A DNA stretch of 63,870 nt, the filler included, from Craspedostauros australis (lineage: Eukaryota), in assembly GCA_030167865.1 (NCBI GenBank). It is 11 parts of 11 records of this genome, joined end to end, with 100 filler letters (N's around TTAATTAATTAA, not from the genome) between each part and the next. Parts side by side here need not be neighbours in the genome. Positions count along the whole stretch, not along the records: positions 20,159 to 24,903 come from JALAGF010002080.1; 10 more parts are not named here. One strand, given 5' to 3'. Positions 1-35,510 of the stretch are shown one piece after another (position 1 is the stretch's first letter; each line of letters begins with the position of its first letter). The position numbers and the translations under genes are program-made. The notes under the pieces were generated by a model. That model ran no database searches, was not told the DNA's origin, and saw nothing but the letters and a program-made list of their open reading frames with translations.

Positions 1-838
1 ACTGCGAATGCAGATGCCTTCCCACGCATCAGTTTCTGTTGACAAAAGGGAGATCACTTGACAATGGTGCGGATGCACATACCGTCAAACATGATTTGCT
101 TCTTTTGTATGTATGCCTCATGTGGTCTTGGAACTGAACTCCGCAAAGGAAGAACATCCATGTCTTTGTTGGTGCAAACTCTTGGGTGAGATCCTGTTTT
201 GCGGCGGGGATGCGCTGAGTGTTGGAAGTCCAAATCTGGTAAGCACAAGTGTGAGGACAAATGAAGGATCATCCCTTTTGATTTGAAGCCATACGGAATG
301 AACGAGAGCCTTGGACTTGCGTGACAAACAAGTGGTCGATGATCAATATACGGAGGCGAATCGTCGTGCAGAAGGCATAACCTATGTATCCCAACCAGCA
401 CAACAGATAACACAGAACTGATGGGTGACTGGAGGCACTCTTTGAACACAGAAGTAGCAAACATAGGCAGGAAAGCTTGCAAGGAGAATGGTAGGTTCAC
501 AACAGCAAGGAGGACGACGGAGCCTGATAAGAACACATCTAACTCCTTTCCTCCTCTACGCAAGCAGGAGAGTATGCAAGAGGCAATGAATGCGATTTAC
601 AACACATAGCATCACTAGTGTATACATTGCAACATTGAGAGAGTTGTTTCGATACTATTGTTGCTGGATGTGGAGCACAGATAAGATTTGCATCCATCAG
701 TACAAAACAACACGGTAAAACACACAGTATTTGTCCAAAAGCACAGGCGACAAATGACGACATTGAACGTTTTTTTTCTGCGAGTGTTCGAGTGAGTCAG
801 ATCCTGTTTTGCTCCGTGTTAAATCTCCACGTTAAGTT

Positions 839-927
839 ATTTTTTGCATCCTGACGCAACAAATTGAGAATCTCCGGGTGACTTGCGTCAGGATGCAAAA
901 AATGGGCGTTTTTGCACCCTGACGCAA
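839..927. repeat. Perfect 21-bp inverted repeat plus a third direct copy; probable DNA-transposon subterminal repeats
   Basis: attttttgcatcctgacgcaa (839-859) is the exact reverse complement of ttgcgtcaggatgcaaaaaat (883-903). A third copy, tttttgcaccctgacgcaa (909-927), has one mismatch. The adjacent 1-770 region holds only broken ORFs. Confidence 0.75.
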
Positions 928-988
928 AAAAATTTCTCCATGGATATTATTATGCGTACTCTACTCTCTAGTAATTTCCTGACTCGAT

Positions 989-6900: not shown

Positions 6901-8983
6901 CTTTGTTAACAGCGCGCTGGATTATCTCCGCTGGGGGCGGCTGCTGTCGAACCCAGAAATTCTCAGCCTCGTCCACCCCATCTCGCTTGATGTCTCTCCA
7001 GTACTCCCATGTTACCTCCGCGTACGGGAGGCCTTTCCATTTGACGATGTATCGCACGTTATCCTCCGGATCCCACGCAACCCCCTTGTGGATGCTGAGT
7101 AAGTTGCGGTGAGAATTCCACTTGTCGATGTCTTTCGAATGGGTCTCGACGAGATCGCCCTTGTCGCTCTCGCTCTTGCCATCAATGATACTGCTGCTGC
7201 TGTTGCTGTCGTTGTTGGCGTTGCTATCGCTATTCTCGTCGCCGTTGTCTGGATGCGGCTCCGTTGGGGCCTCGGAGATCTCCCCGTCTTTGCTTTGGGC
7301 TGGGCTAGAGCTCGACAAATCCTGCGGTTGGCCCTCGCTTTGTTCCGTTTCCAGATTTGCGGTTCTCTGTTTCGCAAAGATCGTTACATCCATATCGGTT
7401 TCGTCGCAAGACATTATGCGTTCAACTTCCAAATGTGTTGGTGAAAAATATTCCGAAGCATGATCGCTTTCGTCAATGGGGTCACCTGGTGGTATCCCAG
7501 CTTCATTCTTCGTTAGTTGCTTGTCATAACCCGGATGGGCTGTCGATAGGACCGCCCGTTCCTCTCTGGTCACCTTCTTCCAGTCCTTTCCGAGCGCGAT
7601 CTCCTGAGCTTGCGCAAAGCGTCTCAGCTTTTGTCGGGCTGTGTTGTTGGACTGGTCGAACTTGATGAGATCTGTGCTTCTTTCCCAACAAGCATGGAGA
7701 TGTGAACGCCCTCGCCATTTGACCAGATACACCTCTTCGAGGTTGTTGGCGTCACCTTGGTCTGCGACAGGCTTGATTCGGAACTTTGGTCGGCCGTTCG
7801 TGTCTTCGAACTCTTTTGCGCATGCCAAAAGCAAGACGATCGGGCACTTCGTAGGATTGAGTCTGGAGATCTCAATCCGTACCGACGGGTCGTTCCACAC
7901 CATTGGATGCGCGATGGCATTGTACTGCAGCCGATGCGCCTCAGCGGCATCGATGGTTGGAGACGAGGTTGGTGGATCGGCATGATCTCCCGGGATATTC
8001 TCTGGTATCCATTCGAGTTCAGTGACAACCCTGCAGTTCCACGCCAATGGCTTTTCCATGACGAAGATGTGGTTGAAGCATTCTCTGGAGTGCCACAAAG
8101 TCGTCAGCATGCCGAGGGGCGGACTATCCAGCGTTGCATTCGAGACGAGTGCTGTTGCCATCTGCTTTGACTTTGGCTGGCCAGCGGATCCAGAAGACCC
8201 CGCCATCCAAGCTTGATCGCCACCGGCATCGTCCGACTGGGCGCTCCCATCGCCATTTCCGTGCTGCTGACGATCGTCGGAGGAGCCAACCTCATGAGTG
8301 GAACCGATGCTGCTGCGGTTCGCTCGGGCAGAATTCGACCGGGCGAGCTTCAGAGTCTTTCTTTTCTTGAGTGACTTGGATTTGGCTGGTTCTCCAAAGT
8401 CGTCTTCATCGTCTTCGGACGAATCCGTGAGGAAGTCGTCCGAGTCAGTCTCCTGGGTCTCCTGGTAGATGGGCCGTTGTCTCTCCGAAATTCTGCCAGA
8501 CGCTCGCGACTTGTTGCGGCCCCAGTCAATGTACAGGCCTTTTAACGACAACCGTACAACGAAGGGCTGCTCTGACAGCACGCTCACAACAGAATGCTTC
8601 CGCTTTGCAGGGGTTTGCGTCGGCATCATCGCGGCTGCATTTGGCGGTGGGTGGGTCGGCGGGAGTGATGGTTTGCGCGGGATCGACATCGACATTGACG
8701 ATCCGCCTGTCGCATTTTCCTTGGTGGTTGGAACTGCGGATGTCTGCATCTTCGTCGGAATTGTCAGAGTGATGCTCGGGGGCCGACGCTGCGATGCTGA
8801 CGTTGATGTAGCCGCTGGATGTCGCGGAATCTTCATCGACACCGCATCGCCCGAAGCTCGTCGGTCTGCGCCGGGCGGCGGCGGTCTGGACCGTTGTTTC
8901 TTGGGAATGGCTCCCATCATGAAGGATGTTGCCGGCTTGTCGTGCGCATCCTTGTCGGTGTCTTTGTCTCTGTTGGGATTCAT
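989..8983 (-). CDS. CHD-family (CHD6-9/Kismet-like) chromodomain SNF2 helicase, 2 exons (8983-4285, 3951-989)
   Basis: Two chromodomains (YLVKWRGRSHLHACWE, YIVKWKGLPYAEVTWE). SNF2 motifs LADEMGLGKT, IVDEAH, LLTGTP, MELRKCCNHPYL, STRAGGLGLNL, DSDWNPQNDLQAMARAHRIGQ. C-terminal LPAWWD..HDAALL. A GTAAG...CAG intron at 4284-3952 joins the two long ORFs in frame (FLRSY|FYHVSLQ). Confidence 0.92.
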
Positions 8984-9987
8984 GGTTGCGAGACGCCACG
9001 AAGAGAGGGGCAACTGCCGCTCTCAGCACGCACTTGTGGTGACCGGCAGAGGTTGGTGCTTTGTGGTATCTGTACGAGCTACGGGTCCAATACGGACATA
9101 GAAGTACGAGTACGACTGTGTGTGCTACGACCTATGTATCGCAGTAGGTATGTCGGTGGACTTCGAATAGGATGATGTGCTGGGCTGGGTGCATTCAGCG
9201 CGACCTCCGAACAACTGTGTGTGGCATTCGTATACAGCAGTATGGAGCGGCTGTTGCGATGGTGCTCTTCGCTGATCTGGTGCTACAGGACGAGCACGCG
9301 AAATCGCATTGATGCGGCAGTGCGATTGTGAGCGGTGCCTCGGGTTGCCTCCGTTTGTGCTGGCTGCCATCCTTTGCTGTGGTCGCTGCAGGCTTCGCAG
9401 TGGAAACTGTACCGTGGCTCTCGTAGCCGATCTTGTTCCGCCATTGTCGCAATCCGGAAACCACACATCTCTGTGTTTGCGTGTTTGTGCCTTTGAGGGT
9501 TTCGATTGTTGCGCTTGTGGTCGGGAATCATTAATCCCGCTAAATTAATTGTATATTTGATGGATGTCGCACCTCCCATTGGTTTTGTTTTGGTTGTGTC
9601 TGTGTTTGTCGTTGTTCGTTGTTCGTTGTTGGTTGGGGCCTCACAGAGGCCGCCAAGGCATAATCATTGCTCTGCATCTACTACGACTACTCCAGCATAT
9701 GCAATAGAATGTATAATATCTTTGTACCACACTATTCCATGATGAAGTATTGCACCACGCAAAAAGTCCATGCTGTGATGCTGGTGCGCTGATGGTTTCG
9801 AATGCACAGGTTGTGCTAATATCATCGTCGCTTGTCGCTTGTCGCGATCATCATCTCTCCAGAGAGTACGACACTTGCCTTCGTTGCACCTGGTCCTTGG
9901 AATGAAAGAATAATCGCAGATTGACGAACATGTGCCCACTCTACTCTCATGGTACTCGTACGAGTATATACTCCATGATGCTCCGTC

Positions 9988-11971
9988 CTACGTTGGAGCT
10001 CGCGTGGATGACGGGAAGAGGTCATCGATACATCGGAAACCGCAACCTTCTTCAAATGCGTAGCACTGCTGTTTCGATTCTTCGATCTGCAGCACTCCGT
10101 CGGAAGAACATGGAAAGACGGGCGAGCACTGTTTCATGGTTCGTGCTCGCGCCTTGCGATACTCAACCAAGGCTTTTGCAAAGATTTCTCTGCCCAGCCG
10201 ATCAATCGTCTTTTCCAGCGATGCGTTAGCAGCAGCGTGAAAAATGTAGTCCCCGTAGTGCTCCGCCCAAAATGAGTCGGACTTGGTAAAGTTCTCGACG
10301 GCCGGGATGGGTTGGTACGATTGTATCTTCACGCAAGCGGCTGACTTCCTTCTTCCATTCTGTTGCTTCTTCCTGAACCCGTAGATGCCGGAGATTTTCG
10401 ACGAGAATGCAATAATGTCGGTCGTGTCGAGTCCAAGCACTAACTGCAAGGCAACCAGTGATTCGTCCATGCGCTCGACAGTCCCGATGAAGTCGTAGCT
10501 CTCCACCACACGTTTCACACGTTCCTGCAATCCCAGCGGATCGATGATATTCGCAGGTTGCGACGGATGCCACGCGCTCGACTCATCGCTGACCTGGATC
10601 ATGGCGTATTGGAGCTGGAAGCCACCGCGACCCTCAGACGTCCCACCGTAGTGTAAATCCTTATTCTGCATCACCGACATCACAGAGCCAGGATCGGCAA
10701 GCATGTCGGGAGTCGTAGCAAATTGAGAGGCCGCCCTTGAGAGAGACCGAGAAAGCGGATCGCGAACAAGCGTCCAAAGGAAGCTGAGCGGGTCGCGCCT
10801 GCGATAATAAAAGCCGGGGACGTTGCCGTCATGCCTGATGCAAGACTGTGTGAAATTGTGCCTCTTGGCGAAGTTGACGGCGATTCGTTTGTTGATCCCA
10901 GCCAGTGTCCTGCCATGTCCGTTTCATGTTTCATGTTTTGTGTGCGGTATCGGTGCGTGCGTGAGTGGATGTTGGCCCATTTACCAGTGCCGGTTTGTTG
11001 CGTTAGTGTCACGATTTGCTTGCGTAGAGTATGTGCGTTTGCATGTTCATTGGCATTCGCTGAGTGGCACCACGAACCCCCTACGGGTGGAGACACAAGT
11101 ATCTATAGGGACGTGCGAATTACAGTGCATCATCATGTGCGTTCTGTTTCTCTAGTTGCCACTTCCTGCGACAGCTGCAAAGTCGTCGGCTGCATTACTT
11201 CTCCTGCAAACCAAAACTCTGACAAAACTTACGTGGATGCTGCGCGAGGAATCTTCAAGTAGCACAGTCCCATGGGTCTGACCCATCAAATCGTAGGATA
11301 ATCGAATGGGTATAGTTTGTGGTGCACAAGCTCAACGACGAGCGTGACGTATGGGGGCGAGAGGTGTCAGCATCAATGCGGTAACGTAATCGCGCTCAGC
11401 TTCCTCCTCCTACTTTGCTGCACTGAAGAAGATTTCAGACCACCAAGGGTGGCGACTGGCTGCGGCTGCGATTGCGATGAACCCACACACAATGAAAACG
11501 ATTGAAGGTACGCATTCTGTCACTCACACCCGACATCTCACATCCCACACCCCATCATATCACCACGCTGTTCTGGGTTCACCTCTGTACGAGTAGAATA
11601 GCGAAAGTGCTCTGTCGGAACAACAACATCGAAGTCTTCCGATTGTCTGCGCAACTGAATGCACCGTCAACTCCTCAAGAGTATGAATCTGCCACTCACT
11701 CTCCCTTGTTTTGCTCGTATTTGAGTGAAGCATCGATGCACCATTTTTTGTAGCTGACCTCCGGAAATGATCTTGATAGGTCCATGCCGACATGCTCCAA
11801 GTGCTGTTGGCGCATCTGCACGATGGCAGGCACCTTCTCCATTGTTGTTGACGGACCGTTTGATCCCGAAGACGAACCGCCAGGGTTGCTGAGGAAGATA
11901 TTCGAGAAGACAAGGGAGATCGCAAGGATGCACGCCGCCGTGGTCCTGATGCACTCTTTGCAGCGTATCAT
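9988..11971 (-). CDS. Multi-exon membrane-anchored sulfotransferase-like protein (Gal-3-O-sulfotransferase-like); exon structure approximate
   Basis: N-terminal hydrophobic anchor (ORF 11696-11971). PAPS-binding-like LCYLKIPRAAST..LAG split by an intron near 11232, then LWTLVRDP and YDFIGTVERMDESLVALQLVLGL in the last exon. Confidence 0.7.
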
Positions 11972-12753
11972 TTTGATGGTGCTGGCTGCAGCGCGAGGTG
12001 ATCCCGATGATCCATCAACAACGAATTGACATCAGCTCTCTTGGGATGAAGGGGGTTGCATCGAGCGGGGGTGTACATCCAAACAACTCTCCTCTCTGTC
12101 TCTATCTCTTTGCCATATATTAGTATGTGTATGGTATGTTGCATGCCTCCGATGCATTTGTGGATTCAGGCTGGAGCCGCAACCGCAACCACAATGGCGT
12201 CACACGCCAGAGGAGACAGAGGTGTCCATTGTGCTCATCGTGCTTCTCCATGCAGACGTGTTCGCAGCTACCCCACAATGCATGGGGGGAGAACGACAAA
12301 CCGAGAAGCGAAATGTCTGGATCTTTCATCGGTCATTTCGACTTGACACCAAACAACCACGAATAGTCTAGAGAATAGTCTAGAATACTCGAATGAACTC
12401 GATGACGAGCACGGAGAAGTGGTTGCGGAATCCTCTCCACGTTCGATGTACTCCTCCAGGTGCGGTACTCTGTCTGCCTCTCTCTCTCTCTCTCTCTCTT
12501 GAGAGTGTTCTTGCTGGTTTAGTTTGTACATGGAAGCAAGAACGCCAGATAGTACCATCCTCACAACGTGCCAAGTGCTCTTCCTGTGTGGGGTGGATTC
12601 AATCTGACCTGCGCCTTGGTCGAACACCCCAAATCTCCAGAGCACCAAGAGTCATCATGGAGTGGCGTCAGGAGGGAAGACTTATTTGAGTATAATACGT
12701 ACGAGTATGTACAAAGTAAGGACGCTGCTCAAGATGATTGATTTGGCACCTGC

Positions 12754-15700
12754 TCACTGCTTCCAGGCAGCGGGGACCATTTCGTCGGGTATCCCAATCT
12801 CCCTTCGAAATGCTACCGACATGTGCATGTCGGTGGAATATGGCACATCCGCAAAACTGATTGCGCTCCGAGGAACGTCTTCGATAACATAATCCTCTTC
12901 GCCCTCGTATTTGTCCCATCGATCTTTTGCCATCTTGGTGATGCGCACCTCGTACAGCATGCCGTCGCCTTCATATTCCACGCGATCCACAACGTTGCAA
13001 GGATACCCATAATCGTTGAGCGAATCCCATTTCATCTTGTCCATGTGGTCCTCCCAAGTTTCATCGTCCAGCAATCTGTAATGACACCTGAGTTGCAGAT
13101 TTTCTGGGTAGGGATCGAAGAAACATTCGTCTTCGGTTCTCAGCGGCACGTCGTACATGATTCTGTTCCATTCATATGCACTGACGTAGCGTTCAGCCAT
13201 GGTATCCACACGTCCACCCCAAGCTTCTTGGTGTGCCAGCCACGCCGCTTCCCATTCGTCTCCATAGTCCAAGAAGAGCTCTTCGCCGTCCTGTATGTCT
13301 CTCGTGGCCACGTAATCAAATCCCAACCTTGACCTGACCTCCTTTGCCATTTCGTTCGGTCTGAAGCTGAGCCACTCGTCACGTTGATTGGATGTCCCAT
13401 CCTCGGCCCATCGTATCTGGACATTTGCAAGGGTCTTATTGTGATTGATGTAATTGATCCCGACTCCGTACGGGCATAGCAGAACCGAGGATTCTCGATG
13501 ACCGAAGCAGTAGTTCAAAAGAAGCTGGTGCCGAGTTGATTCATCGCTTTGTTGCTGCCCGTCCTGCTCATTCAGCCCAACTTGCTGCTGGGTCATCATC
13601 AGTAGCTCTCGTTTCGGATAGTGGTGTAACTGCGTTCCCCATGGTGGACAAAATAAGTGCATGGATACATGCGCACAATCACAGAAATATGTACATCAGG
13701 GATGGAGTGAGGAGAGGTACATTCCGTCTGGGATGCATCATCGATCAATCGAGCACGTGCAATATGCAACATCGGCGCAGCAAGTAGTCGTGGTAGCCAA
13801 CTCGCTCTCTCTCTCTCTCTCTCTCTCAAGAGCACGAGTACGAGTACGAGTACACCATGGTGCTCCACGTATGCCCATTGGTACGAGTACGAGTGCACTT
13901 GTATTTCGAGAACAAGGAGTCACGAACAGTACGCGTACCATGCAAATACGTACCGGCGATCCCGTGATAACTGTGCCCTTCGGCAGATTCCTTTTTGCGA
14001 AAGCTCCCCGCCCTGCATCCGGGATGGTAGAATCCTTGGGGATGATATGATCCACGCACTTTGCATTCTCGTTCAACCATTCGATGGAGCGTGTCGCAGC
14101 TGGTTGATGAGTGGCGCCGATATCCTTCTCTACCGCCAAGAGACCCTCTTCGAAGGTGGGCGGGATTGCATTCGCGGTTCGTGTCTTCCAGATCTTACGA
14201 AAATCCAAGAGCAAAGAGTACAGATTGGCAAGTACTGGCTGCTCGTGCATGGAATGCTTGTCTGCAATTTCTCCAAATGCATTTACCACACTCTGTGCGA
14301 CGCGATAGTTGGGTGGCAGAGGGATGTGGCTGAAGTGCTCACGGGATCGGAACCTGTTGTCGTCGCCGTAATGATCGTCGGTGATATGGAGAAATCGACG
14401 CAGGATACCGAGTAAGAGTGCATTCCATCTCCGCAGGTTGTGGTGGAGGGCCACAATTGGTGAGTCATAGCAGAGTGGCATGCACGAAGTACGATGATCG
14501 CAGCATGAGACGGCCGCTGCTCCAACGCCACGTCGGCCCAAGCACGAATAGGACACAGCCCACCAACCACTTAGAGATGCAAGGAAAGGGTCACCACCAA
14601 CACCAACACCAACACCAACACCAGCAGTAGCGGCAAAATAGTTGGGACATCGCAGCCCCTGTTACAAGAAGACACCACTCCGAACTCACCAGCTTTCGCC
14701 ATAGGACTTGAACAGTTCGCCTCCGACGGGAACATCTCGTATAACCCGCGTTGTTCCATTGGTGTACGGTGATATAGCACCAGCACCAGGACTTGTCGAT
14801 CGATGAATGCTCCCGACATCGTACTCCGGAATCGCCTTCGCGACGTTGAGGAGTGCCATGTTGCAATTCTGTAGGACCAAGAGATGTGAGAAGATAGCAA
14901 TTTTGCATCATGGAGGTTCCGCATGGCAATTGCAGCGCATGAGAATTCTAGAGATCCATCCGTCCACTACGCCAATTATTGCGGTCTTGGTAGCGGGTTC
15001 TCGCCGTCCGGCACGGCGCAATCCAATTCAGTTCCAACGCATAAACATATAGAGTCGAGTATTGCCTATCCTCCTCCGCCGCAACAACATGTTTCTCAAC
15101 GTCTTCGTACCCGAACTTACAACGACACAGTCCAAGCCAGGGCATAATGCCTCAATGTCCCCAGTGGCACTTTCCATCTTCATCCCCATGACTTCTCCTG
15201 CGCGGTTGCCATTCGGGGCGACGCGTCAGTGTTGGCATCATGCAGATCGTATCAGTGCGTGGTCGGAAAGTGGAACAGATATGCGAGTGAATGACCGGGT
15301 GAGTGTTGGCGGCGTACTGTCGCGTACGCAAGTTGAATCTGCATTGCTTCACCAACATGACAATGCAATCGAGCAAGCCTGCGTGCGCTATCCCATGACT
15401 CCACGAGTAGTCTCCCGTCGAACGGGAACGCCCAAGCCCGGATGAAAAGCTGCATCGTGCTCTACTCTACATTGGTGTGCCGCGCATGAATAGCATATAA
15501 TTGCGTCTATGAGGATAAATGCAGCACTCCATGCACCGGTGTCAGCCGTGCCATTGAAGCCATCCTCTTCTGCAGCCGTCCTCGTTCTTCGTTCAGGCAA
15601 TTGTACCATACTCCACCAGTCTGGACTCGTACATGGTGGTACTTGTGCATGCTTGTGCATACTCGGACGTACCTCCCCACACGTAGTCCTCGAATGGGTT

Positions 15701-16060
15701 GAACCGAGGATGCTGGTTGTGTGTCGAATAGTCCACGATGGGAATGCAGACGTCGCCGTGGCCAACTTCGTCGCCAATCTTCAGGTCGATCCCTGTGAAT
15801 ATTCCCAACCCAGCGCCTGGGATCGTCGACTCTCCGATGTACATCCCGCACTCCAGTGGCTCTGGCTGCTGAGGATGAGCAAAGGCTTGAGCCGCCTGCT
15901 GTACCATCAGCCATAGCATCACCAGTCCCATCGATTCGGAACCGTGCCCATGCTTCTGCGGGTGATCTCGTCGCTTCGCTCGAATCGACATGGTGTCGTT
16001 TGTGCAGGTCCGATGAGCTGAGCGATGGGATCGTGCACGGACCCTTTCTGGACGAGCCAT
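12754..16060 (-). CDS. Multi-exon tandem SET-domain protein with signal-peptide-like N-terminus; start uncertain
   Basis: First SET half: ECGMYIGESTIPGAGLGIFTG ... VIRDVPVGGELFKSYGESW. Second SET half: DSTIPDAGRGAFAKRNLPKG ... LLNYCFGH..LLCPYGVGINYINH ... YVATRDIQDGEELFLDYG. Hydrophobic MGLVMLWLMVQQAAQA precedes the first domain. Confidence 0.8.
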
Positions 16061-17017
16061 GGTTTCAGCGAAGCCGCACTGCCGCCTGCAACCGCAACGC
16101 TTCTCCAGAGTGTAACTGCAGAGAATCCCTCAACCATCCACTGCACCCGTGCAGAGTATAGTATGAGTCTGCTTGCTATCTCGCTATCTCGCTAGGTATC
16201 TCTTTCCCACTTGAAGCCTTTGGTGGTGGATAATGATGGCGAGGATGGCGAGGGAGATGTTGGAGAAGTTCATCAACCGGTCGATCGATTTGCGTCCACA
16301 AAAGAGAACAACAGATTTCGGCCCTTGGAGGTTGCCGTATAGTTGGATATCACACCGAAAACTTCGGTATGCTCAAGAACCTGACGTATGCACGACAGAC
16401 GACCAATGTCGACCTGAAGTCTACCCAAGGTTAGACTTCTGAACATGTAGTCTCGAGTTTGATTAGCACAAAAGTGTACATCGTACTTAGGCACGCACTC
16501 GGTTGCACTGCTCCACGTTAAAATCATACTTCCATCGCATGTTCCTCCTCCGTAAAATCACCTGAACTTCTTATTTTTGAGTGTACTGGATGGCAAAGAA
16601 CATCGATGGCCTCCTTCTCATTGCTACATTCACACTTCTTGCACCGGTTGACATCGTTGAGTGGAATAACAAATAGGCCAATGATTGTGAGATGCCTGCT
16701 TCAAGGTTGGCTATTCGTCGAAAACAAGTAATCGAGACATCTATGCGAATCATGGTATCGATAGCATTGAAGATGTTTGCAATCAGAGTTCTATCTTCGA
16801 ACGCTGGACATGTAAGGCACCACCCGGATCGGTCAGCATTGACCATGGTATTGAAGCTACTACACATATGGAACAACTTGAGCTGCATTCGCTCTCTGAC
16901 ATTTGACAACTGAGCTGTTTCGAATGTTTGTCACGGATATTCTCTGCACGTTTTCTCTTTGTTGCCACGCGGACGAGAGACCAGACTCTCCATACTACAT
17001 ACAATGGAGAAGGGGTG

Positions 17018-17117
17018 NNNNNNNNNNNNNNNNNNNNNNNNNNNNNNNNNNNNNNNNNNNNTTAATTAATTAANNNNNNNNNNNNNNNNNNNNNNNNNNN
17101 NNNNNNNNNNNNNNNNN
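17018..17117. other. Assembly linker (N-run with TTAATTAATTAA); also at ~20059, 24904, 30225, 32923, 34375, 35511, 46679, 61026 and 62731
   Basis: Near-identical ~100-nt spacers containing a six-frame stop linker. Confidence 0.97.
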
Positions 17118-17118
17118 G

Positions 17119-18120
17119 TAATGAAATAGCAAACAGACGACTATCAACCAACACCATCTTCCACGATCGTAGGTTACCGTGAGCGGAACTTGCCAACAAA
17201 AGTTCGTTGTACTCTGGAGGCATCGGCCTCTCGTGCGGCGCCAATGTTCCTGCCCATGATGTGTCATTCACTTCATTGTCGCCAAACAGTCCTACGTCTC
17301 CATTCACCACGTTTGGTTTCCGTTTGCGGTTTGAGCTCCACCGTGCTTGCCTGTAGATGTCTACCACCAGCGCCCCCTACTGTACTGCTTGTATGCACTG
17401 GCCCATGGAAGTACTCACACTTCTGGATTCTCCGCGCACTGGCAGTTCATGGCTGTCACCACCAGTTGTCCCAGTACATGACCTATTTGCTTGCAGGTGA
17501 GGATCCCAAAACATGGATGACAACAAGCAAAAGAGACAGAGATACGACAAAGAAATTGCGCTATACATTGCAGGAAGAGGATACAAGTAACAAAATAAAT
17601 CACCCACTGATTAACCGCTCCTTATCTACGGTTGCATCGATGACGCTTTTTCCACCTCCTTTCAACTTTGCGTGGCACGCGAAGGGGGCACGGACTCGGG
17701 TCTGTTGCGTTCCTTATTTTTGTGCTGACGCCTGCGTTGACCGCCCCTGTGCAGTCAGGAAGCTATTGGCCACAGCCACCTTCATCTGCTTGTACAATGG
17801 CCCACCAGCAACAGGTCACCTGTAGTATGGCTGCTGCCTACTCCATCCATACCGCCAGCCATGGGTTGGTGGGGTACTTCAGCATCCATTTCCGCATGCC
17901 TTGCACTCCTTGTTGCGCGATTTGGCGCCGACTGTTGGCCTTGCAGGTCCAAAAGTGTTCCACGGTTTCTTCGTGGCCGCAGCCAGGGCACACGTGGGAC
18001 AGACAGGGACCCCACTGGCGCATGTGCCTCCCAAATGCAGCCTCGCCTGCCACCAATGTACAGTCATCGTGGCCTTCGTTCGTCCCAGACCTCCGATTTT
18101 CCTATCCACCGCCGTCCACT
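17119..18120 (-). mobile_element. Degenerate non-LTR retrotransposon (LINE) 3'-region remnant
   Basis: GRHMRQWG..VCPGCGHEETVEHFWTC...MRKWMLKYPTNPWL resembles the C-terminal CCHC zinc finger of LINE RT proteins. Frames are broken by stops and shifts. Confidence 0.5.
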
Positions 18121-19604: not shown

Positions 19605-19621
19605 ACCCCGGATTTCCAACA
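19605..19621 (+). mobile_element. 3' end of an LTR (solo or 3' LTR) of the same copia family as 20159-24903; 5' boundary not determined
   Basis: accccggatttccaaca matches 17/17 the reverse complement of 24887-24903 and ends in the canonical LTR ...CA. The upstream ~1.4 kb lacks real ORFs. Confidence 0.65.
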
Positions 19622-20158
19622 AACAGAACTGTAACAATCACTACCATCACCTACAGTTGCAAGAATATCCATGAGCGGAACTTGCCAACATGTATTACGT
19701 GAGCTGTGCGCTGCGCACCGCGAAACGCACAGCCAACACCTATTTGAGGACCACATGGTCGTTGCATGAATCGCAATGGCGTCATAAGGTGAGAATGATG
19801 GTGCACCATGACAAAGAGGAGCAATGATCCAATGGGTGTGAAGGAAGTAGAGTCGCACAGCAGAGAAGCATCTGGCCAATAGATGGCGAACAATGATGAC
19901 ACTATAGTGGAGTCTACAATAGTACTGCATTGCACAATCGCACTCTACTGGAGTCAACGCCGCGCACTTCTCTCCCTGTTAGAACGTAATCGTAGATGGG
20001 TTTGAAGATACCGCACCGAGAACGTAGAGTGATCAAGTCGTTGTTGTTGGTGAGGAGANNNNNNNNNNNNNNNNNNNNNNNNNNNNNNNNNNNNNNNNNN
20101 NNTTAATTAATTAANNNNNNNNNNNNNNNNNNNNNNNNNNNNNNNNNNNNNNNNNNNN

Positions 20159-23100
20159 CCGATTCCGAATTAGCAGGCATGGGTCCACCTTGCTCTGCCG
20201 GAAGCCAAGCTTGATCAGGATGTCCACAAGCTTTTTGTTCCATTGCCTCGCGCTCTGTACCAGCCCGTAGATGGTCTTTTTCAGCAGCAGGCATTCATCC
20301 GGTTCGTGTTCCATTCCTTTGGGACACTGCATGTAGATCTCCTCTTCGAGTTCTCCATGTAGGAAAGCAGTTTCAAAGTCGATGATGATGCTGTCGGTCT
20401 TCAACAGCATCTTCATAGTGAGCATCACACGGTATGTTGCATCATGGATCACGGGCGCATGGTGAGCGGAGAAATCCACTCCAGCAATCTGCGAGTATCC
20501 ACAAGCAACCAACCTGGCTCGAAAGACGCCGTTCCTCTTCTCCTTGAAGACCCACTTCGTCTTCACACATCGCCGATCCCTTGGCATCTCGTTCTTCTTG
20601 ATCTTCTGCCAGACTCCTCGTCTTGTCATATCGTAGAACTCTTTGTTGATGGCCTCCCGCCATTTCTTTCGCTTTGCTGGATCTGCATGATCCCAGCATT
20701 CTTCGAATGTCGTGGGGTCCAGCATCATAGCAGTGTATGCATGCTCGGACATCTCATCCCATTTCTCTCTCTCGACCCTTTGACTTGCCGTAATGAAGTC
20801 ATCCAGTCTCATCCTTCCTTGTGTGGTGTCAATCATCATACTGGCCACATCTCGATTGAACACGGATAGGTTTGTATGGAAGTCCCGTTCTTCAGCGGTT
20901 GCAGGGGTCGTCTCAACTACCTCAGCTGGTTCGTCGTTCCCACTGCTTGACTCTGAGTCGGATTCATATCCTGGCGGGTTATTGTGCGGTGCCAAATCGC
21001 GTAGCATCCGTGACATCCTTGCCACTGGTCTAATGGGAGAGTACTCGAGGTGTTTGCCTTCAGCCACTTGCCTCCGAGTCACTCGTTCTTCGTCCCTTCC
21101 GGATTCATCGTCGTATTCCTCGTCCGATGGTTCGTCCCCTTGGGCAGGTAGCAATTCATCTTGCTCTCGAGTATGGTCTTCAGTATCATCGTAGTCTATG
21201 CCGGACTCTCTACTCTTATCAGCTGATGCGGCCTTCGCTTTCCTCGCGATACCCGTATCACGCTCCCAAGTCACCTTCGTATTACGGAGTGCTGCTCTGG
21301 CATCGAAGTCGTCGTCTTCCAGGTCCACCCACTGTGTCCTGTTGGCATTCTCAATACCCTTGAGTTGCCCATACGACTGGTTCATCCATGTCACGTCTCT
21401 GGTGATCAGGACTCTCGTAGTTGCCAGATTCATCATGCGGTACACACCACTCGCATGAGACTGTCCGTATCCAACGAACATGGCTGGTTTGGATCTATCA
21501 TCCAGTTTCGCCTTGATAGCGCGACTGCCGATGAAAACCATTCCGATCTCCCCAAACACACGCAGTCCTTGCGCGTAGGTTGGGATTTGCCCATTGAGCA
21601 ACAGGCACGCAGGTTCCCTTGATTTAGTCTCGATGATGTTCTCAATCTGCGTTGCATTCCTTGCTGCCTCTGCCCATAGCTTGCCGCGTAGCTGTCTTGG
21701 TAGGTGTGCCTGGTTCAACATTGACCTGACCTTACCATACAGTACCGCGAACTTCCGGTCCACTCTTCCATTCTGCTGTGGCGTTGATGCCGCGGTGTAT
21801 TCGAATGTTGGGGCGAATCCTGCCTTCAACAGTAGTTTCTCCGCGCTGTAATTTTCGCCAGCGTTGTCACATCTGATATTTTTCACTGTCACTTGTTGAT
21901 TGCCCAAGAGCCATTTCAACAACGACATCAGCTTGGATCCGACTTCGCTTTTCTCTTTCACGAAGTAGCTCCAGCAGTAATCACTGTAGTCATCGATGAC
22001 CAGCAGCCAGTATTTTCCGTGACCGAAGCTTGTCGCTTGGACACTCGAGGTATCCATGAAGAGTCGTTCGCCAACTCGCTTCGCTCGTGGTTGAAGAGTT
22101 TTGGTCAGGCCTTTCTGTCTTGCCTTCCCGATTGCGCAATCCTCGCAGGGATTGAGCGTTCCTGTGACGTTCCATCCGTAGTGTCTCGCCGTTCTGGAGA
22201 TCGTGTAAGAGTCAACGTGGCCTAGCATCTTATGCAACTTATTCACATCCATGGGCTTCTTCGTGTCGAATCCGATGTTCGCCATCTCTTCGTCTTTGGG
22301 GACTGGAACCATGTTCACACCCAACACAAACCCACTGTGCGTTGCCATGATCCGGTCAAACCGGATGCGCTGTCCATGCTTCTCCAATGCGATGATGACA
22401 CCTTTGTTACTGATGTCGAACCCGTTCTGGAGTGCTTTACCAATGCTGAGGAGATTCACCCAAAGCTTCGGCACGTACCTCACTCCCTTCAGGATGATGA
22501 TGGCGCTCTTGCCATCCTTTTGCAACACTTTCATGCGTAAATCTCCGACCTTGGTGGCACGCAAGAATTTACCGCTTCCGACCTTCACCGAAAAATTAGA
22601 GAGGCGAACATTAGTCATGCCTTCGTCGTTATTCGTGAGATGGCATGATGCTCCAGTGTCGCCCAACCATGTGTTAGCTTCATGTTGGTCTGGTGCAATA
22701 AGCTTGCGGCTGTTGCTGCTCGCCTCGAGGTCCCCGACCACCATGGCCAAGTCATAGCCTCGAGTAGCCATCGCGATGTGGTCCGCCATCTCCAGTCGGT
22801 GTTGCGGACTCCCCACACGGGGTCCTCTCTTTGGCAATTCGCGACACTCCAATCCATTTCGGACTTCAGTATCTTCCCAGTTGTACATCCACATGAGTCG
22901 CTGAGCTGACATTTTGCTCATTCTTGCGATCAGGTGATTTGGGAGGAGTGGGAGTTGCTTTTCTTCGAGTAGCTCATTAACCATCACGAGCTTGCATGAC
23001 ACATCGAACATTCCGTTGATGCCGATCTGCGTGAGCATGTAGTAGAGCTCACGAGCGCCCATACACTGTGCTCCTGCCTCGATGGTCGCCTTTCTCACGT

Positions 23101-24814
23101 CGTAGCATAGAAGTGCTACATTGAAGCGCACATCGTTCGCCTCCAATACGTTGGATAGGGAGACCCTTAAGGCGTCCTCCACTGATCCGAGTCGACCAAG
23201 GATCTCGCGACGGCGAGCAATCTCGGCTTCAGTGCTCGGTGGGAAAGTGTCATCTCCCCAGATGGTGCGGATTTTGAATGGACTATACTCGGTGCAATCC
23301 GTGCACCATGAGTACATCGCTCCGCGAGTGAGACAGAGTGGGCACCATGCGTCCATTCTGCTTCCCTCACATGCGCGGTCAATCTCTTCACGCAAGAAGC
23401 GATCGATAGGGTTACCAGTGCGAGTCACTGTCGTTCCTCTCCCACGCGTAGTCGGCGCGTCGTCGAAGTCCATTCCAGGCATCGCGATCTCTTCATTGTC
23501 CGCGATGATCTCGTCGATCACGTCGTACTCAATCAGGTCTTCGCCCATGAGCTCGAGGATATCGACCTTGCTGTCGTTGGTTGGCGACTCGACTCTTGCA
23601 GCTGGAGGGAATGTTCCCATGAACTCCACGATATCGTCCTCGTCGTCGCTGTCGATCATGATCTCGTTGTGATCGTTGATTTCGACGAAGTCTCCGTCCG
23701 CGATGATGAGCGCCATATCATCCATCGCGTCGTCGCCATCCATTGCCACATTGGCGCTTTCTGCGTCTTTCATCGCTGCCTTCAGCTTAAAGCACTGAAG
23801 GATCTTGTGCCCTGCCTTTCCGCAGTAGTTGCACTTGCCATCGAACTGCACCTTCTTGAGTCCGCCTTTGGCGTTGGCGTGGTGACCTTGTTTCTTGGCA
23901 CCACCGCCCTTCTTGTTGTTGTTGCCGCCCTTGGCTGGCGCACGACAGTCCGCCTTCTTGTGCCCGTAGGCGCCACAGTTGCGACAGTTTCCCTTGAACT
24001 GACCAACTCCAATTAGTGCGAACTCTTCGCTACCGTTGTTGCCTGCGCGCTTATAACCATGTTTGAGATGGTGGCGGTCGTAGGTGAGGCTCACGGCTTC
24101 GTGGATGTCGCCCACAGTCATCTCTCGTTCCTTTCCTAGGAACTTGAGCTCGAGCAACTTCACATCCATCTCGCACTCGCGGCCGAGTGCGTTGAGGACG
24201 AGCATGTTGAATTGCTCCACATCGACGATCACCTTCAGGTCGATCAGTCGGTTTCGAAGGACCTCCATGTCCGTCAGGAAGAGATCCGGATTCTCTCCCT
24301 TCTTCAGCCGCATCCCNNNNNNNNNNNNNNNNNNNNNNNNNNNNNNNNNNNNNNNNNNNNNNNNNTAGATGCGCTCAAGAGCCACCCAAGCTGCACGAGG
24401 GTCTCCTCCCCCGTTCAGCATGCTCTTGCATCCCCACACCGCCTCGAAGGCAACTTTGCCTTCCTTCGAATCATGGCTGATAGCCAAGGTCAGTTCTTCG
24501 TAGGCGTACTTCGCCATCGCTTCCTTGTACTCGGCCAGGTCCGCAGCGCTCGGCTTGGTGCTTGCCTTGGCGCTCGTCTTGGTGCCGGGTTTGAGCTTGG
24601 TACCTGCCTCGGTCTTGATGGTTGGGACCAGGCTCTCGGTAACCTCAGAAGGAGCTTTCACTTCCACCTCAGAGTAGGCCATCAAGAACATGTCTCNGTA
24701 ACCCTTGCGGTTAGCACGAGAGAGGAACTTGGCCAGCCAGAACTTCCAGTTCTCCTTCTTGCCGTCGAAGTAGACCACCNGGAGGCGGTCGGTTTTGGCG
24801 TTGATGGTACTCAT
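20159..24814 (-). CDS. Copia Gag-Pol polyprotein (3'-truncated at the gap; internal N run)
   Basis: Single open frame of more than 1500 aa from ATG 24814 (MSTINAKTD) with gag, PR, IN and RT motifs. Confidence 0.9.
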
Positions 24815-24903
24815 GATGATGATGGTGGATGATGGCTTGATGGTGCGGGGTGAAACGTAGGATTTCAATCTAAACGTTTCGAAACGTGTTGGAAATCCGG
24901 GGT
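20159..24903 (-). mobile_element. Ty1/copia (CoDi-like) LTR retrotransposon, truncated by gaps at both ends
   Basis: Order on the minus strand: LTR end, gag (FDGKKENWKFW, two CCHC knuckles), protease (WLGDTGASCH), pre-integrase (HKMLGH..CEDC), integrase (FMDTSS, IDDYS, DNAGE, PQQNG), RT (KTKWVFK, FRARLVACGYSQ, DFETAFLHG, KKTIYGLVQSARQW). Integrase precedes RT, as in copia. Confidence 0.95.
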
Positions 24904-25004
24904 NNNNNNNNNNNNNNNNNNNNNNNNNNNNNNNNNNNNNNNNNNNNTTAATTAATTAANNNNNNNNNNNNNNNNNNNNNNNNNNNNNNNNNNNNNNNNN
25001 NNNA

Positions 25005-27731: not shown

Positions 27732-29906
27732 TCAAGCAAGAGTGGTCACGTAGTCGACAACATCAGTGTGGCCCCATTTTTCCGCAATGTCCAGCGCAGT
27801 GTCGCCATCGATATTCTTGATGCTGATGTCTGCGTTGCACGATTCCACCAAGTACTTGACGACCTCCAATCTACCATTCCAACTTGCCCGCCAAAGTGGT
27901 GTACTGCCATTCTTGTTTTGAATGTCGATTTCTGCGTTGCCTTGTTCAACTAAATACTTCACGACCTCCAAGTTGCCATGAATGCTCGCAAGGTGCAGTG
28001 GAGTGCTGCCATACTTGCTGGTTTTGATGTTGATATCGACCTTGCCTTGTTCAACCAACGACTTCACAACATCGAGATGACCATCAGCACTGGCGCGATG
28101 GAGGATGGTGGAGCCATCCTCGTCTTTCACGTTCAAATCGACATTGGGTGTTCCGATGAGATACTTGACAATGTCGACGTGATTGTTATGATATGCCTTG
28201 AAGATTGGAGTCTCGTGTTTGTCGTTCTCAGCGTTGATATTGGCCTTGCCGGATTCAACCAGCCACTTCACAACATCGAGATGGCCATTGCCACTTGCGA
28301 GATGGAGCACGGTGTTGCCATCCTCGTGTCGGGAGTTGGGATGCATGCTTGGTGTTCCGATGAGATACTCGACAACGTCGAAGTGGCTGTTGCGATATGC
28401 CTTGTAGAGTGGAGTCTCGCACTCATGATTCTCAGCGTTGATGTTGGCTTCGCCTTGTTCAACCAGCCACTTCACAACATCCAGATACCCATTCTGACAT
28501 GCGAGATGAAGCACGGTGTTGCCATCCTCGTGTCGGAAGTTGGGATATATGCTTGGTGTTCCGATGAGGTACTTGACAATGTCGAAGTGACTGTGACAAT
28601 ATCCCACATAGAGCGGAGTCTCGCACTCATGATTCTCAGCATTGATGTTGGCTTCGCCTGATTCCAGCAAATGCTTCACAACATCGAGATGCCCATGCGC
28701 GGCTGCAAGATGGAGTGCAGTATTGCCAGCCTTGTTCTCGGCGCTGACTTTGATGATCGCTTTGCCTGAGTCCACCAAAGGCTTCACCACATCCAGACGA
28801 CCTTCAGCACTTGCGCAGTGAAGGGCAGTGTTGCCGTCGTTATTCTTGGCGTTGCCATCCACCTTCAGATCGTCTGACTGTATCAAGTACTCCACCACAT
28901 CCAAATGACCTCCAGCACTTTCGCAGTGAAGCAACGTGTCGCCATTCTCGTCTTTGGCATTGATGTCCACCTGACCTGACTCCACCAACCATCTCACAAC
29001 ATCCAGATGACCTTTGGAATATGCAGACTGAAGAGCCGTGCCGCCAGCTTCATTCTCAACATGAACATCTGCCTTGCACGACTTCACCAGATACTCTGCA
29101 ACATCCATATGCCCATTTCTGTAAGCAACATGAAGCGCGGTATCGCCGTCATTGTTCTGGACGTCGATGGCCACAGTACGAGCCTCCATCACATACTTCA
29201 AGATATCAAGATGACCCTTCAGACACGCATTGTGGATCGCAGTATTGCCAAATTCATCTTGAACATTGATTTCCACTCCACATGATCCAACGAGGTACTC
29301 CACAACATCCAAGCGTCCATGAAGACATGCGGCATGGAGGGCATTCTCACCCTTCTCATCTTGCACGAGAGCGCTTGCAGAATATGACTCGATCAGAGTC
29401 TTCACGATGGCCACATGACCCTCGGTACATGCGTCGTGGAGTGCTACCTTGCCGAAGTTGTCCTGGAGGTTAACATCTGCAGCATGCGACCCGGATAGGT
29501 ATTCCACGACATCAAGGTTGCCCTGTGCGCATGCATAGTGTAGCGCAGTCTCTCCATCCATGGATTGGGCATTGACGTCTGCTCCGCATGACTCCATCAA
29601 CTGTTGGATCGTTTCAAGCTGGCCGTTGGAGCATGCGAGGTGGAGCGAAGTCTTGTCGCGGTCATCCTTGATCGTGTCGATGAAGGTTTGTGGAAATGCT
29701 GTCTTCCATGCGGTGAGGATGTCCACATCTCCTTGTTCTGCGGCGCGCAGAAGATCCTGGTCGGTGACGGTCGGGTTGGATGCATCACCAGGGGTCGACT
29801 TGAGCGAAAGGAGAGATGACCATTTTGCGGTTTGTGTTGACGAAGCCCGGAGGTTGCGCAATGGTGAGGTGGACAGTATAGCGAGTCGTGGAAGGATGAA
29901 GACCAT
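27732..29906 (-). CDS. Ankyrin-repeat protein (roughly 19 repeats)
   Basis: Continuous G.TALH.A...G.LDVV.YLV repeats. The likely start MVFILPRLAILSTSPLR (29906) is followed by an S/R-rich leader. Confidence 0.9.
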   Translation of the reverse strand: MVFILPRLAILSTSPLRNLRASSTQTAKWSSLLSLKSTPGDASNPTVTDQDLLRAAEQGDVDILTAWKTAFPQTFIDTIKDDRDKTSLHLACSNGQLETIQQLMESCGADVNAQSMDGETALHYACAQGNLDVVEYLSGSHAADVNLQDNFGKVALHDACTEGHVAIVKTLIESYSASALVQDEKGENALHAACLHGRLDVVEYLVGSCGVEINVQDEFGNTAIHNACLKGHLDILKYVMEARTVAIDVQNNDGDTALHVAYRNGHMDVAEYLVKSCKADVHVENEAGGTALQSAYSKGHLDVVRWLVESGQVDINAKDENGDTLLHCESAGGHLDVVEYLIQSDDLKVDGNAKNNDGNTALHCASAEGRLDVVKPLVDSGKAIIKVSAENKAGNTALHLAAAHGHLDVVKHLLESGEANINAENHECETPLYVGYCHSHFDIVKYLIGTPSIYPNFRHEDGNTVLHLACQNGYLDVVKWLVEQGEANINAENHECETPLYKAYRNSHFDVVEYLIGTPSMHPNSRHEDGNTVLHLASGNGHLDVVKWLVESGKANINAENDKHETPIFKAYHNNHVDIVKYLIGTPNVDLNVKDEDGSTILHRASADGHLDVVKSLVEQGKVDINIKTSKYGSTPLHLASIHGNLEVVKYLVEQGNAEIDIQNKNGSTPLWRASWNGRLEVVKYLVESCNADISIKNIDGDTALDIAEKWGHTDVVDYVTTLA
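28070..28740 (-). repeat. ~3 tandem 204-bp units (two ankyrin repeats each) inside the ankyrin gene
   Basis: ttccgatgag recurs at 28151, 28355 and 28559 (period 204), with near-identical 68-aa peptide units. Confidence 0.85.
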
Positions 29907-30387
29907 GATGGAGCTGGCGTGTTTCGAGATGGAACGGCTTGTTGCTGAGATCAGATCAATGCGACGGTTTTTTCGATGTGATTTGAATGATTGTTTGGCT
30001 GGTCGTAGTCGCTTGATCGCATCTCTGTTTGCCTTTATGAGGCTGGTGGTCTGTTTCATGGTCATTGCTGGTGGTATCCCGTGCTCCGTTTCACCCAGCG
30101 TGCATGGCATTCCGTTGATGACTGTTTCACGATGTTTTTCGTTTCACATTGTTACCGTGATGTCGCTGTGATCACCCGATCTACTTTGGCATCAACGTGA
30201 ACATCAGCTTGAGCATTGGCTTGANNNNNNNNNNNNNNNNNNNNNNNNNNNNNNNNNNNNNNNNNNNNTTAATTAATTAANNNNNNNNNNNNNNNNNNNN
30301 NNNNNNNNNNNNNNNNNNNNNNNNGGCAACCACGGTGCAAACAACAATGACAACGATAATGACAGCAGAACCAGCGCAGATGGATTC

Positions 30388-34473: not shown

Positions 34474-35510
34474 NCGATCTGAAGTTCTCGGATAGGATCG
34501 ATCCCATCATGTTCACCCATATTGGTCTCAGCACTCCTTGTGCGACTCCTGGGAACAGACTCACTCCTGCTTCCATCACTGCATCGAAGATGAGTTGCTT
34601 CTGGATCACCAATGCTGTTTCTGTTGCATATGGGACGGTGTCATGACGATGGAGGTAGTTGGACCTGTTGGGATCCTCGATTGGTGGGAAGTCGATGTTC
34701 CCTGGGTAGACGACGCGCTCGTTTGGATTGAAGCTGTCGTCTGGATGATTGCCGTCCTCGGATTCGTCGCTGTCATCCTCGTCGAAGATGCCCGATCTGT
34801 TGTTCCCCGCCGCTGGAGGAGGCGGCGCCGCGGCGTGGCGCGTTTCGCCTTGATTGATGAAGGTTCCCGTTCTCTCGTATCTCCCAGCTTGAGGAGGAGA
34901 CAACTCGTTGCGGTTCGCCTCGTCGTCTTCATCTGCGCCGTCCTCGTCGGCGTCGTCGCCGTCGTCGTCATCGCTCATGGCCTCTTCGATGTCGCTATCG
35001 TTGACCTCGTCCATCTCAGCTTCGTCGCCGTATGAACCGATCAGGTCGTGCGCGTTGAAGCAGCATTCGTAACTTACTTCGCGTCTTGGATCCACCTCGT
35101 GGATGATGGGCTCCTCGTTGAGCCACTCCGGAACGATCTCATCGTCCTGCACTTCGTCGTCACTTCCGACATACTCGAAGTTATCGAAGAAGGAGTCTTC
35201 GATGTAGTCGTCGGACACCAACATGCAGAGCGGCATGTCCTTCGCAGAGAGTACCATCTCGTGTCCGCTCTTGTCGTGTCCTTCCGTAGCCGCGTTGGCT
35301 TGTTCGTTGTTCTTCTTGATCTCGTTGAACTTCTTCTTTCGGCACTCCGCCTCGCGATGTCCGAAGATGCCGCAGTAGTTGCACTTGCCCTTGAAGCCGC
35401 TTCCTTTGTTGCGCTTTCCGTTCATCTTGTTGTTGTTGTTGTTGTTGTTTTTCTTGTTGTTCGATTTCTTGCGTTCTGGGCAATCGGCGGATCTATGGCC
35501 ATACACGCCA
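34474..35510 (-). mobile_element. Second copia (CoDi-like) gag fragment
   Basis: Two CCHC knuckles (GHRSADC; FKGKCNYCGIFGHREAEC), then EQANAA/EMVL motifs and an acidic spacer, as in the element at 20159-24903. Confidence 0.75.

Follow-up and report, generated by a model that had tools for sequence, protein, structure and literature searches.

A covarying palindrome at the primer-binding-site position of a Ty1/copia element from the diatom Craspedostauros australis and of its metagenomic relatives

In textbook schemes for retroelements with long terminal repeats (LTRs), minus-strand DNA starts from a host tRNA. To our knowledge, tRNA priming has one proven exception, Tf1, whose own 5' end serves instead. 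A Ty1/copia element in the genome of the diatom Craspedostauros australis (assembly GCA_030167865.1) raises the question of what serves as the primer site when a perfect palindrome occupies the position of the primer-binding site (PBS), directly after the 5' LTR. The element lies on the minus strand of contig JALAGF010002080.1 within the window, that is, the whole stretch of 63,870 bases analysed here, in which 11 contigs are joined and the neighbourhood of contigs is not evidence of linkage. An earlier note on this DNA, made from the sequence alone, had proposed tRNA-independent priming or a dimerisation signal. Comparison with relatives supports this proposal in kind, through conservation, covariation and complementarity between the LTR end (U5) and the leader, and from these we infer a mechanism. 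As far as the sequences tell, the palindrome is a clade-wide, covarying and self-complementary substitute for the primer site, and it is very probably an element maintained by selection at the PBS position.

The element consists of one open frame that is cut by the contig end. It encodes gag with two CCHC knuckles, a protease with DTGAS, an integrase with the H-H-C-C finger and D,D,E, and the first ~190 residues of a copia-type reverse transcriptase (RT). Judged by comparison with relatives, the frame lacks ~350 residues of RT and RNase H at the left end of the contig, and it contains one run of 49 Ns and two single Ns. The order gag-protease-integrase-RT and the Pfam match to RVT_2 at 6e-31 identify a Ty1/copia (Pseudoviridae) element, as the earlier note had it; Pol_BBD and SH3_retrovirus were also found, and the relatives have the same domains. 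Read on the minus strand from LTR to leader, the junction is ...ACCCCGGATTTCCAACA followed directly by CGTTTCGAAACGTTTAGATTGAAATCC, and upstream of the likely gag ATG at 24814 it continues as ...ACCCCGGATTTCCAACA followed by CGTTTCGAAACGTTTAGATTGAAATCCTACGTTTCACCCC.... Thus the earlier reading that no TGG start follows the LTR end agrees with ours, and both the coordinates and the letters of the 14-bp palindrome ACGTTTCGAAACGT hold. This palindrome is composed of the core CGTTTCGAAACG, the final A of the LTR and the following T. Since the outer A-T pair is kept in 18 of 35 distinct junctions of the clade, the unit of the palindrome is 12 nucleotides (nt). The palindrome of the window is by itself weak evidence, not beyond chance: six palindromes of at least 14 bp occur in the window, against 3.1 +/- 1.6 in shuffled sequences.

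In LTR elements the U5 boundary marks the 3' end of the primer, and because of this the sequence adjoining the terminal ACA of the LTR would be the priming site. The position of the boundary is therefore central. The element contig contains only 17 nt of the 5' LTR and no 3' LTR, owing to the contig end and the cut pol. The earlier note had set the LTR end by a 17/17 match between this piece and positions 19605-19621 of a neighbouring contig. The match is exact and breaks precisely between ACA and CG. The window contains the 17-mer exactly twice, where 0.11 occurrences are expected when up to three mismatches are allowed. The relatives support the end so placed, but the matching copy is not the element's own 3' LTR, as described below. 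In three relatives (loci L003, L044 and L073) both LTR copies end in ...ACA; unrelated DNA follows the 3' copy, whereas the 5' copy alone is adjoined directly by a 12-nt palindrome. Because both LTR copies of these three relatives end there, the sequences corroborate the boundary at ACA/CG. The U5 end motif TTTC(C/T)AACA is common to the window element and the relatives, whose LTRs are 160-590 nt long, have the form TGT...ACA and follow the purine tract AGGAAGGG.

In a collection of genome contigs, a scan with exact 20-mers found no copies of the same family and a protein scan found no confirmed relative; comparison with a protein atlas gave generic Copia clusters only, and a look-up of public sequencing runs for 20159-24316 listed none, of RNA or otherwise. 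Relatives were taken from aquatic metagenome sequences instead. A profile of the polyprotein and 15 homologues retrieved 79 metagenome loci (L numbers) at 33-59% protein identity, many of which are assemblies collapsed on the LTR. The denominator was set independently of palindromes: tblastn to the gag N-terminus gave 47 gag starts in 44 loci with at least 150 nt upstream. A CA followed by a perfect palindrome of 10-12 nt was found no more than 600 nt upstream in 43 of these 47 assessable starts, so the conservation on which the earlier proposal depended is borne out among these relatives. In one of the remaining four, the contig starts within the palindrome, and three have one or two G-to-A changes at CpG. 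Imperfect palindromes were seen only in L041:150-300, L038:6900-7010 and L034:2957-3460, where G-to-A changes affect terminal CpGs; as expected, such changes fit methyl-CpG decay in inactive copies.

The letters of the palindrome vary widely. There are 16 variants among the junctions. CGTTTCGAAACG is present in the window and five loci, including the nearest relative of the window element (L001, 65% RT identity), and further variants include CGTTTATAAACG, CGCTAATTAGCG, CGCTTCGAAGCG, CGTTTGCAAACG, CGATAATTATCG, TACCAATTGGTA and TAATAATTATTA. One subclade has a 10-nt core, CGTTTAAACG. The ends of the core are mostly CpG (CG....CG). In L073:4690-5672 one member of the clade is inserted in the RNase H region of another, and the palindromes of the two differ (CGTTTGCAAACG vs TACTTCGAAGTA).

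Whether the symmetry is maintained through these changes was examined in a gapless alignment of 35 distinct junctions. All 210 cells of the six core pairs are Watson-Crick, and each of the six pairs has changed on both sides, so compensatory changes occur throughout the core. The covariation score was 0.608 against 0.161 in shuffles and was reached by none of 500 shuffles, and sliding the partner by 1-3 columns lowered pairing to 31-42% of cells. A quick maximum-likelihood tree built from the RT segment (49 rows, 187 columns) requires at least 18 switches of palindrome type, and two pair changes separate L019 from L036, which are well-supported sisters. A chance palindrome without function would be compatible with the number of long palindromes in the window, but its position, conservation and covariation across relatives reduce the probability of this explanation to almost nothing.

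No G-U pair was found at any assessable site. This absence fits a homoduplex, in which one substitution damages two pairs; this would explain why G-U pairs are lacking and mismatches almost lacking. Strict Watson-Crick pairing, together with the CpG ends, would also suit a site in double-stranded DNA for a dimeric protein, element-encoded or host, or another DNA-level signal. A protein site should keep its letters, however, whereas here every pair changes and the symmetry stays, so a symmetric double-stranded DNA site fits poorly with the sequences. There is no evident reason at the DNA level why the site should stay fixed at the U5 boundary, and a second palindrome in four related loci, described below, is symmetric only when G-U is counted, which points to RNA. 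We consider a DNA-level site very improbable.

It is important to distinguish pairing between two molecules from folding within one. In a hairpin, the central four bases would form the loop and be free to vary. In the alignment, the central pairs, columns 22-25 and 23-24, are never unpaired (0 of 70 cells) and occur as two and four pair types, respectively. The central tetranucleotide has six forms, TCGA, AATT, TTAA, TATA, ATAT and TGCA, every one of which is palindromic. This central symmetry is not an artefact of the search because the denominator was defined by gag. Isolated 12-mer hairpins have energies of 0 to -2.6 kcal/mol and 4 of the 16 variants do not fold, whereas homodimers of the 12-mers reach -7.0 to -20.7 kcal/mol. 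Since the central pairs are always complementary and the homodimers are stable, what is constrained should be either the pairing of one copy of the site with another or a symmetric site in double-stranded DNA. These sequence data favour pairing between two copies over a hairpin.

An intramolecular hairpin, like that proposed for the Conserved Hairpin Site of fungal GalEa elements, might nevertheless be recognised by the RT or extended as a snap-back primer. The minimum free energy fold of the window junction does contain a 5-bp hairpin inside the U5-leader stem, and the ACGTTTC downstream in the window could pair with the 3' half of the palindrome. RNAalifold on 24 junctions of 112 nt retained the four outer palindrome pairs, with covariation, and no others; the flanks align too poorly for a consensus helix. 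Against this stand the always self-complementary would-be loop and the poor hairpin energies just given, and a downstream partner of at least 7 nt is present in 3 of 43 junctions only. A hairpin as the functional form is thus improbable, and pairing between two copies remains our preferred reading.

The earlier note had also described a GGATTTC/GAAATCC stem enclosing the palindrome, and the two arms are indeed complementary. In the window, the 89-nt fold of the junction has a z of -2.05, and the U5-leader duplex has a z of -2.51, with 4 of 100 shuffles as good; the 7-bp stem by itself is weak evidence. Among the relatives, the energy of the U5-leader duplex was below that of shuffled leaders in all 43 junctions (mean z -2.07, 20 of 43 below -2), and cognate duplexes averaged -19.9 kcal/mol against -14.7 kcal/mol for non-cognate ones. 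U5-leader complementarity around the palindrome is therefore moderately supported. The palindrome is flanked by these complementary stretches, yet it sits at the position of the primer site, and no other primer site was found at the junctions. A second palindrome of at least 8 nt after or overlapping the first was found in 16 of 43 junctions, compared with 5.5% of random segments. In L014, L015, L021 and L026 this is TGGGTACCTA, just after the first palindrome and self-complementary only counting G-U, which gives a small hint that the second palindrome may act at the RNA level.

What, then, could prime at this site? Rfam gave only chance-level matches on 24700-24903. The PBS motif of metazoan GalEa is absent from all 79 loci. 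A primer complementary to the palindrome has the palindrome's own sequence, and a conserved host RNA cannot track the 16 variants. The lack of TGG, the 16 variants and the absence of the metazoan-GalEa motif are indirect evidence against a host tRNA, by its 3' end or as a half, as primer. A further possibility is priming in cis, in which the transcript's first bases (the start of R) fold back onto the site. Self-priming is established in Tf1, and it has been predicted in the TAR lineage of plant Ty1/copia elements (PMC6317226). In the relatives, none of the 34 usable LTRs, a set from which L034 was dropped, has a complement of at least 10 nt to the palindrome plus 8 nt. The best is 9 nt at the LTR start of L002 (4 of 200 shuffles as good), and the others have 8 nt or fewer or none, at chance level. 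The complementarity to the element's own transcript 5' end, for which the earlier note had suggested a check, is thus not borne out in the relatives, and Tf1-type priming in cis has hardly any probability here.

Since the site has no complement other than itself, a second genomic RNA carrying the same site would be the simplest source of a primer. Selection would then favour sites able to pair with a further copy of themselves, in the simplest case on the two genomic RNAs of one particle. The two RNAs would pair over 12 bp, with the U5-leader stem presenting the site, and the partner RNA would be cleaved at the 3' border of this duplex. The 3'-OH of the cut RNA would be extended through U5 and R of its partner, starting minus-strand DNA. 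Such self-priming in trans would need no tRNA and would merge dimerisation with priming; it would follow the logic of Tf1, with the site itself in the place of the transcript's 5' end. That the palindrome is a priming site using the element's own RNA is, on the sequence evidence, a proposition for and against which we see equal weight.

Alternatively, the palindrome may serve only as a dimerisation or packaging signal, while priming at or beside it falls to a host RNA, for instance a tRNA fragment. Self-complementarity over the full length, central pairs included, fits an intermolecular duplex of this kind, and palindromes in or near primer sites have been discussed for mouse mammary tumour virus (MMTV) and human immunodeficiency virus type 2 (HIV-2) (PMC8096270). 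However, the LTR boundary places the 3' end of the primer no more than a few bases from ACA, so on the palindrome itself; a conserved host RNA could not follow 16 variants through at least 18 switches; and the 35-row alignment contains no conserved non-palindromic block after the palindrome. A signal for dimerisation only is unlikely, though less so than the hairpin.

Several points weigh against self-priming in trans or against parts of its evidence. The model needs a cut in an RNA-RNA duplex plus one uncut partner as the template through the site, and it does not account for the frequent second palindrome. The absence of G-U is unusual for a helix that acts purely at the RNA level and also fits a DNA-level constraint. 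The 47 junctions are mutually related, so that sequence counts overstate the number of independent events. As to the stem, the longest uninterrupted helix does not separate cognate from non-cognate combinations (7.6 vs 7.1 bp), the window's own copy ends 17 nt into its LTR, and with these 17 nt of U5, 14 of 37 non-cognate leaders pair equally well. No tRNA genes with which the site might be compared were found in the window or in the 30 of 79 fetched loci that were scanned.

The closest precedent is found in fungi. Fungal GalEa Copia elements have no PBS, and a 9-bp sequence is palindromic when the last A of the LTR is included (Donnart et al. 2017, PMC5445492). Their Conserved Hairpin Site consists of CHSeq1, which is CTGATCAGT or CTAATTAGT in 85% of families with differences at the paired 3rd and 6th bases, and CHSeq2, its inverse complement 12-41 bp downstream with a conserved A/A mismatch (PMC5445492). 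The authors found no Tf1-type complement, fitted no model and left the mechanism open (PMC5445492). The elements described here likewise are copia elements with LTRs ending in ...ACA, without a tRNA-type primer site and with a short palindrome directly after the LTR. A first arm that includes the final A of the LTR in the palindrome is present in the window, and in the clade the core is far more general than this A...T extension. In contrast to the 9-nt site of fungal GalEa, the core here has 12 nt, or 10 in one subclade, and none of the 16 variants equals CTGATCAGT or CTAATTAGT. A downstream complement resembling CHSeq2 is confined to the three junctions mentioned above, among them the window (7 nt, ~16 nt downstream); a second, different palindrome often follows in its place. 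The hosts of fungal GalEa are Pezizomycotina, whereas the present elements come from a diatom and metagenomes, and the two groups are likened here by features of the site. The palindromic site is probably a new variant of the fungal GalEa precedent, from which it differs in sequence, length and second arm.

Other systems share some of these features. Drosophila copia and yeast Ty5 are primed by half-tRNA(iMet). The kissing-loop dimer initiation site of retroviruses is a palindrome in a hairpin loop, apart from the primer site. Ty1 reportedly has palindromes, that is, self-complementary leader sequences able to pair two genomic RNAs, and is said to be tRNA-primed all the same. The present site resembles retroviral dimer initiation sites in being a self-complementary leader sequence with the ability to pair two genomic RNAs. 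The palindromes in the PBS of MMTV and HIV-2 are set by the tRNA sequence, the tRNA primer is still used, and in MMTV they proved dispensable for dimerisation (PMC8096270). Unlike all these viral palindromes, the whole site is here a palindrome and varies freely yet symmetrically. Half-tRNA(iMet) priming of Ty1/copia elements is also described for Osser, Bryco and Gymco-II (PMC6317226). Such sites are similar to ours in adjoining the LTR without a TGG start, but a conserved host tRNA contains their match in its interior, and neither a palindrome nor self-covariation is expected there. Tf1/Tf2 of the Tf1/sushi group (Ty3/gypsy) are alike in the proposed priming by own RNA through a duplex of ~11-12 nt directly after U5, in the proposed need to cut RNA paired with RNA, and in the flanking U5 structure (PMC6317226, PMC6934838). 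However, the Tf1 site finds its complement in the transcript's first bases and lacks palindromic symmetry, whereas the site described here is complementary only to itself and belongs to an element with the copia domain order. The CoDi elements are, like the present one, Copia elements of diatoms with related sequences in marine metagenomes, a likeness that does not imply placement in a CoDi group; the paper that describes them mentions neither a primer site nor tRNA, and neither palindromes nor hairpins (Maumus et al. 2009, PMC2806351). For Copia elements of diatoms or algae, we found no description of a primer site that is palindromic in the literature covered, which is partial and leaves subscription journals mostly outside.

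The features of the window that bear on this analysis are collected in Table 1.

Table 1. Features of the element, its 5' junction and the surrounding joints, in positions of the window
Feature	Position	Strand	Remark
Ty1/copia gag-protease-integrase-RT frame	20159..24814	-	one open frame, with the N-terminal part of RT; cut by contig end
Likely gag start codon	24812..24814	-	60 nt downstream of the palindrome
ACGTTTC	24852..24858	-	repeats the 5' half of the palindrome ~16 nt downstream; complementary to its 3' half
Leader stem arm GAAATCC (element strand)	24860..24866	-	pairs with the U5 arm
Second, overlapping 8-nt palindrome AAACGTTT	24872..24879		window junction
14-bp palindrome ACGTTTCGAAACGT	24874..24887		perfect; core plus final A of the LTR and following T
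12-nt palindromic core CGTTTCGAAACG	24875..24886	-	PBS position, directly after ACA of the LTR
Last 17 nt of 5' LTR (U5 end, ...GGATTTCCAACA)	24887..24903	-	contig ends 17 nt into the LTR
U5 stem arm GGATTTC (element strand)	24892..24898	-	encloses the palindrome
Second copy of the 17-mer	19605..19621	+	neighbouring contig, in opposite orientation to the element
Artificial contig joint N44-TTAATTAATTAA-N44	24904..25003		not biology; alike at 17018-17117, 20059-20158 and seven more joints

The second 17-mer copy was considered as the 3' LTR of the element in place and was rejected. Read on the element strand it is preceded by GTTACAGTTCTGTT, where the LTRs of relatives are preceded by the purine tract AGGAAGGG, and no pol C-terminus is encoded in the 437 nt beside it (19622-20058). 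In the absence of both, it would therefore be the terminus of another LTR copy, an end on the plus strand or a start on the minus strand; either orientation is possible because the relatives have terminal inverted repeats of ~8-13 nt. Neither a partner terminus nor a target-site duplication was found for it, and self-BLAST found no LTR repeat inside the window. On the same contig (17118-20058), a 22-nt direct repeat CC(G/A)TGAGCGGAACTTGCCAACA is present at 17177-17198 and 19669-19690 on the plus strand. Each copy closes a unit of ~68 nt starting with AACAGA, and one unit begins directly after the 17-mer at 19621. The ...GCCAACA ends in this contig resemble LTR termini of a related family, and the contig may be a mosaic of LTR fragments.

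In the relatives, the polypurine tract AGGAAGGG is nearly invariant and lies directly 5' of the LTR start TGT(T/C). It was seen in L002, L004, L006, L011, L012, L016, L019, L024, L025, L028-L030, L036, L045, L049, L053, L071, L078 and others; in one subclade, the LTR begins with TATTGG after GGGAGGG. Within the polyprotein of the window element, residues ~360-730 (22680-23790, minus strand) separate the gag knuckles from the protease; this region of ~370 residues has a Cys-rich stretch, no Pfam match and poor conservation among relatives. A second Copia gag fragment, covering the zinc-knuckle region, lies at 35144-35509 (minus strand) at the end of a short contig. Elsewhere in the window, contig 1-17017 carries an intron-free gene (4115-9013, minus strand) for a CHD-type chromodomain helicase of 1632 amino acids with 72-77% identity to proteins of raphid pennate diatoms (Cylindrotheca, a Bacillariaceae metagenome-assembled genome, Fistulifera and Epithemia), which points to this group as the probable host. 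Tandem repeats of 68-80% identity at 27825-29013 lie within an ankyrin-repeat open reading frame (27732-30110), and a 400-nt inverted repeat of 70% identity has its arms 7 kb apart at 50551-50943 and 57904-58293.

In conclusion, a palindrome that replaces the primer site had been reported once, in fungal GalEa, without a mechanism. This study adds its presence in a diatom element and across relatives from aquatic metagenomes, its upkeep via many compensatory changes, and the constraint on the central pairs that favours pairing of two molecules over a hairpin. Tentatively, and with somewhat less confidence than in own-RNA priming as such, we suggest a third way of starting reverse transcription, besides tRNA priming and the fold-back priming of Tf1, in a large Copia clade of diatoms and other protists: packaged RNAs may pair at a palindrome on the U5 boundary and each may prime the other, and the fungal GalEa hairpin site may be a version of this. 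If the model is true, transposition would be lost when the symmetry is broken and restored by any new palindrome, and two half-complementary partners would rescue each other. Software for LTR annotation that insists on a tRNA match will overlook such elements in algal genomes or assess them wrongly.

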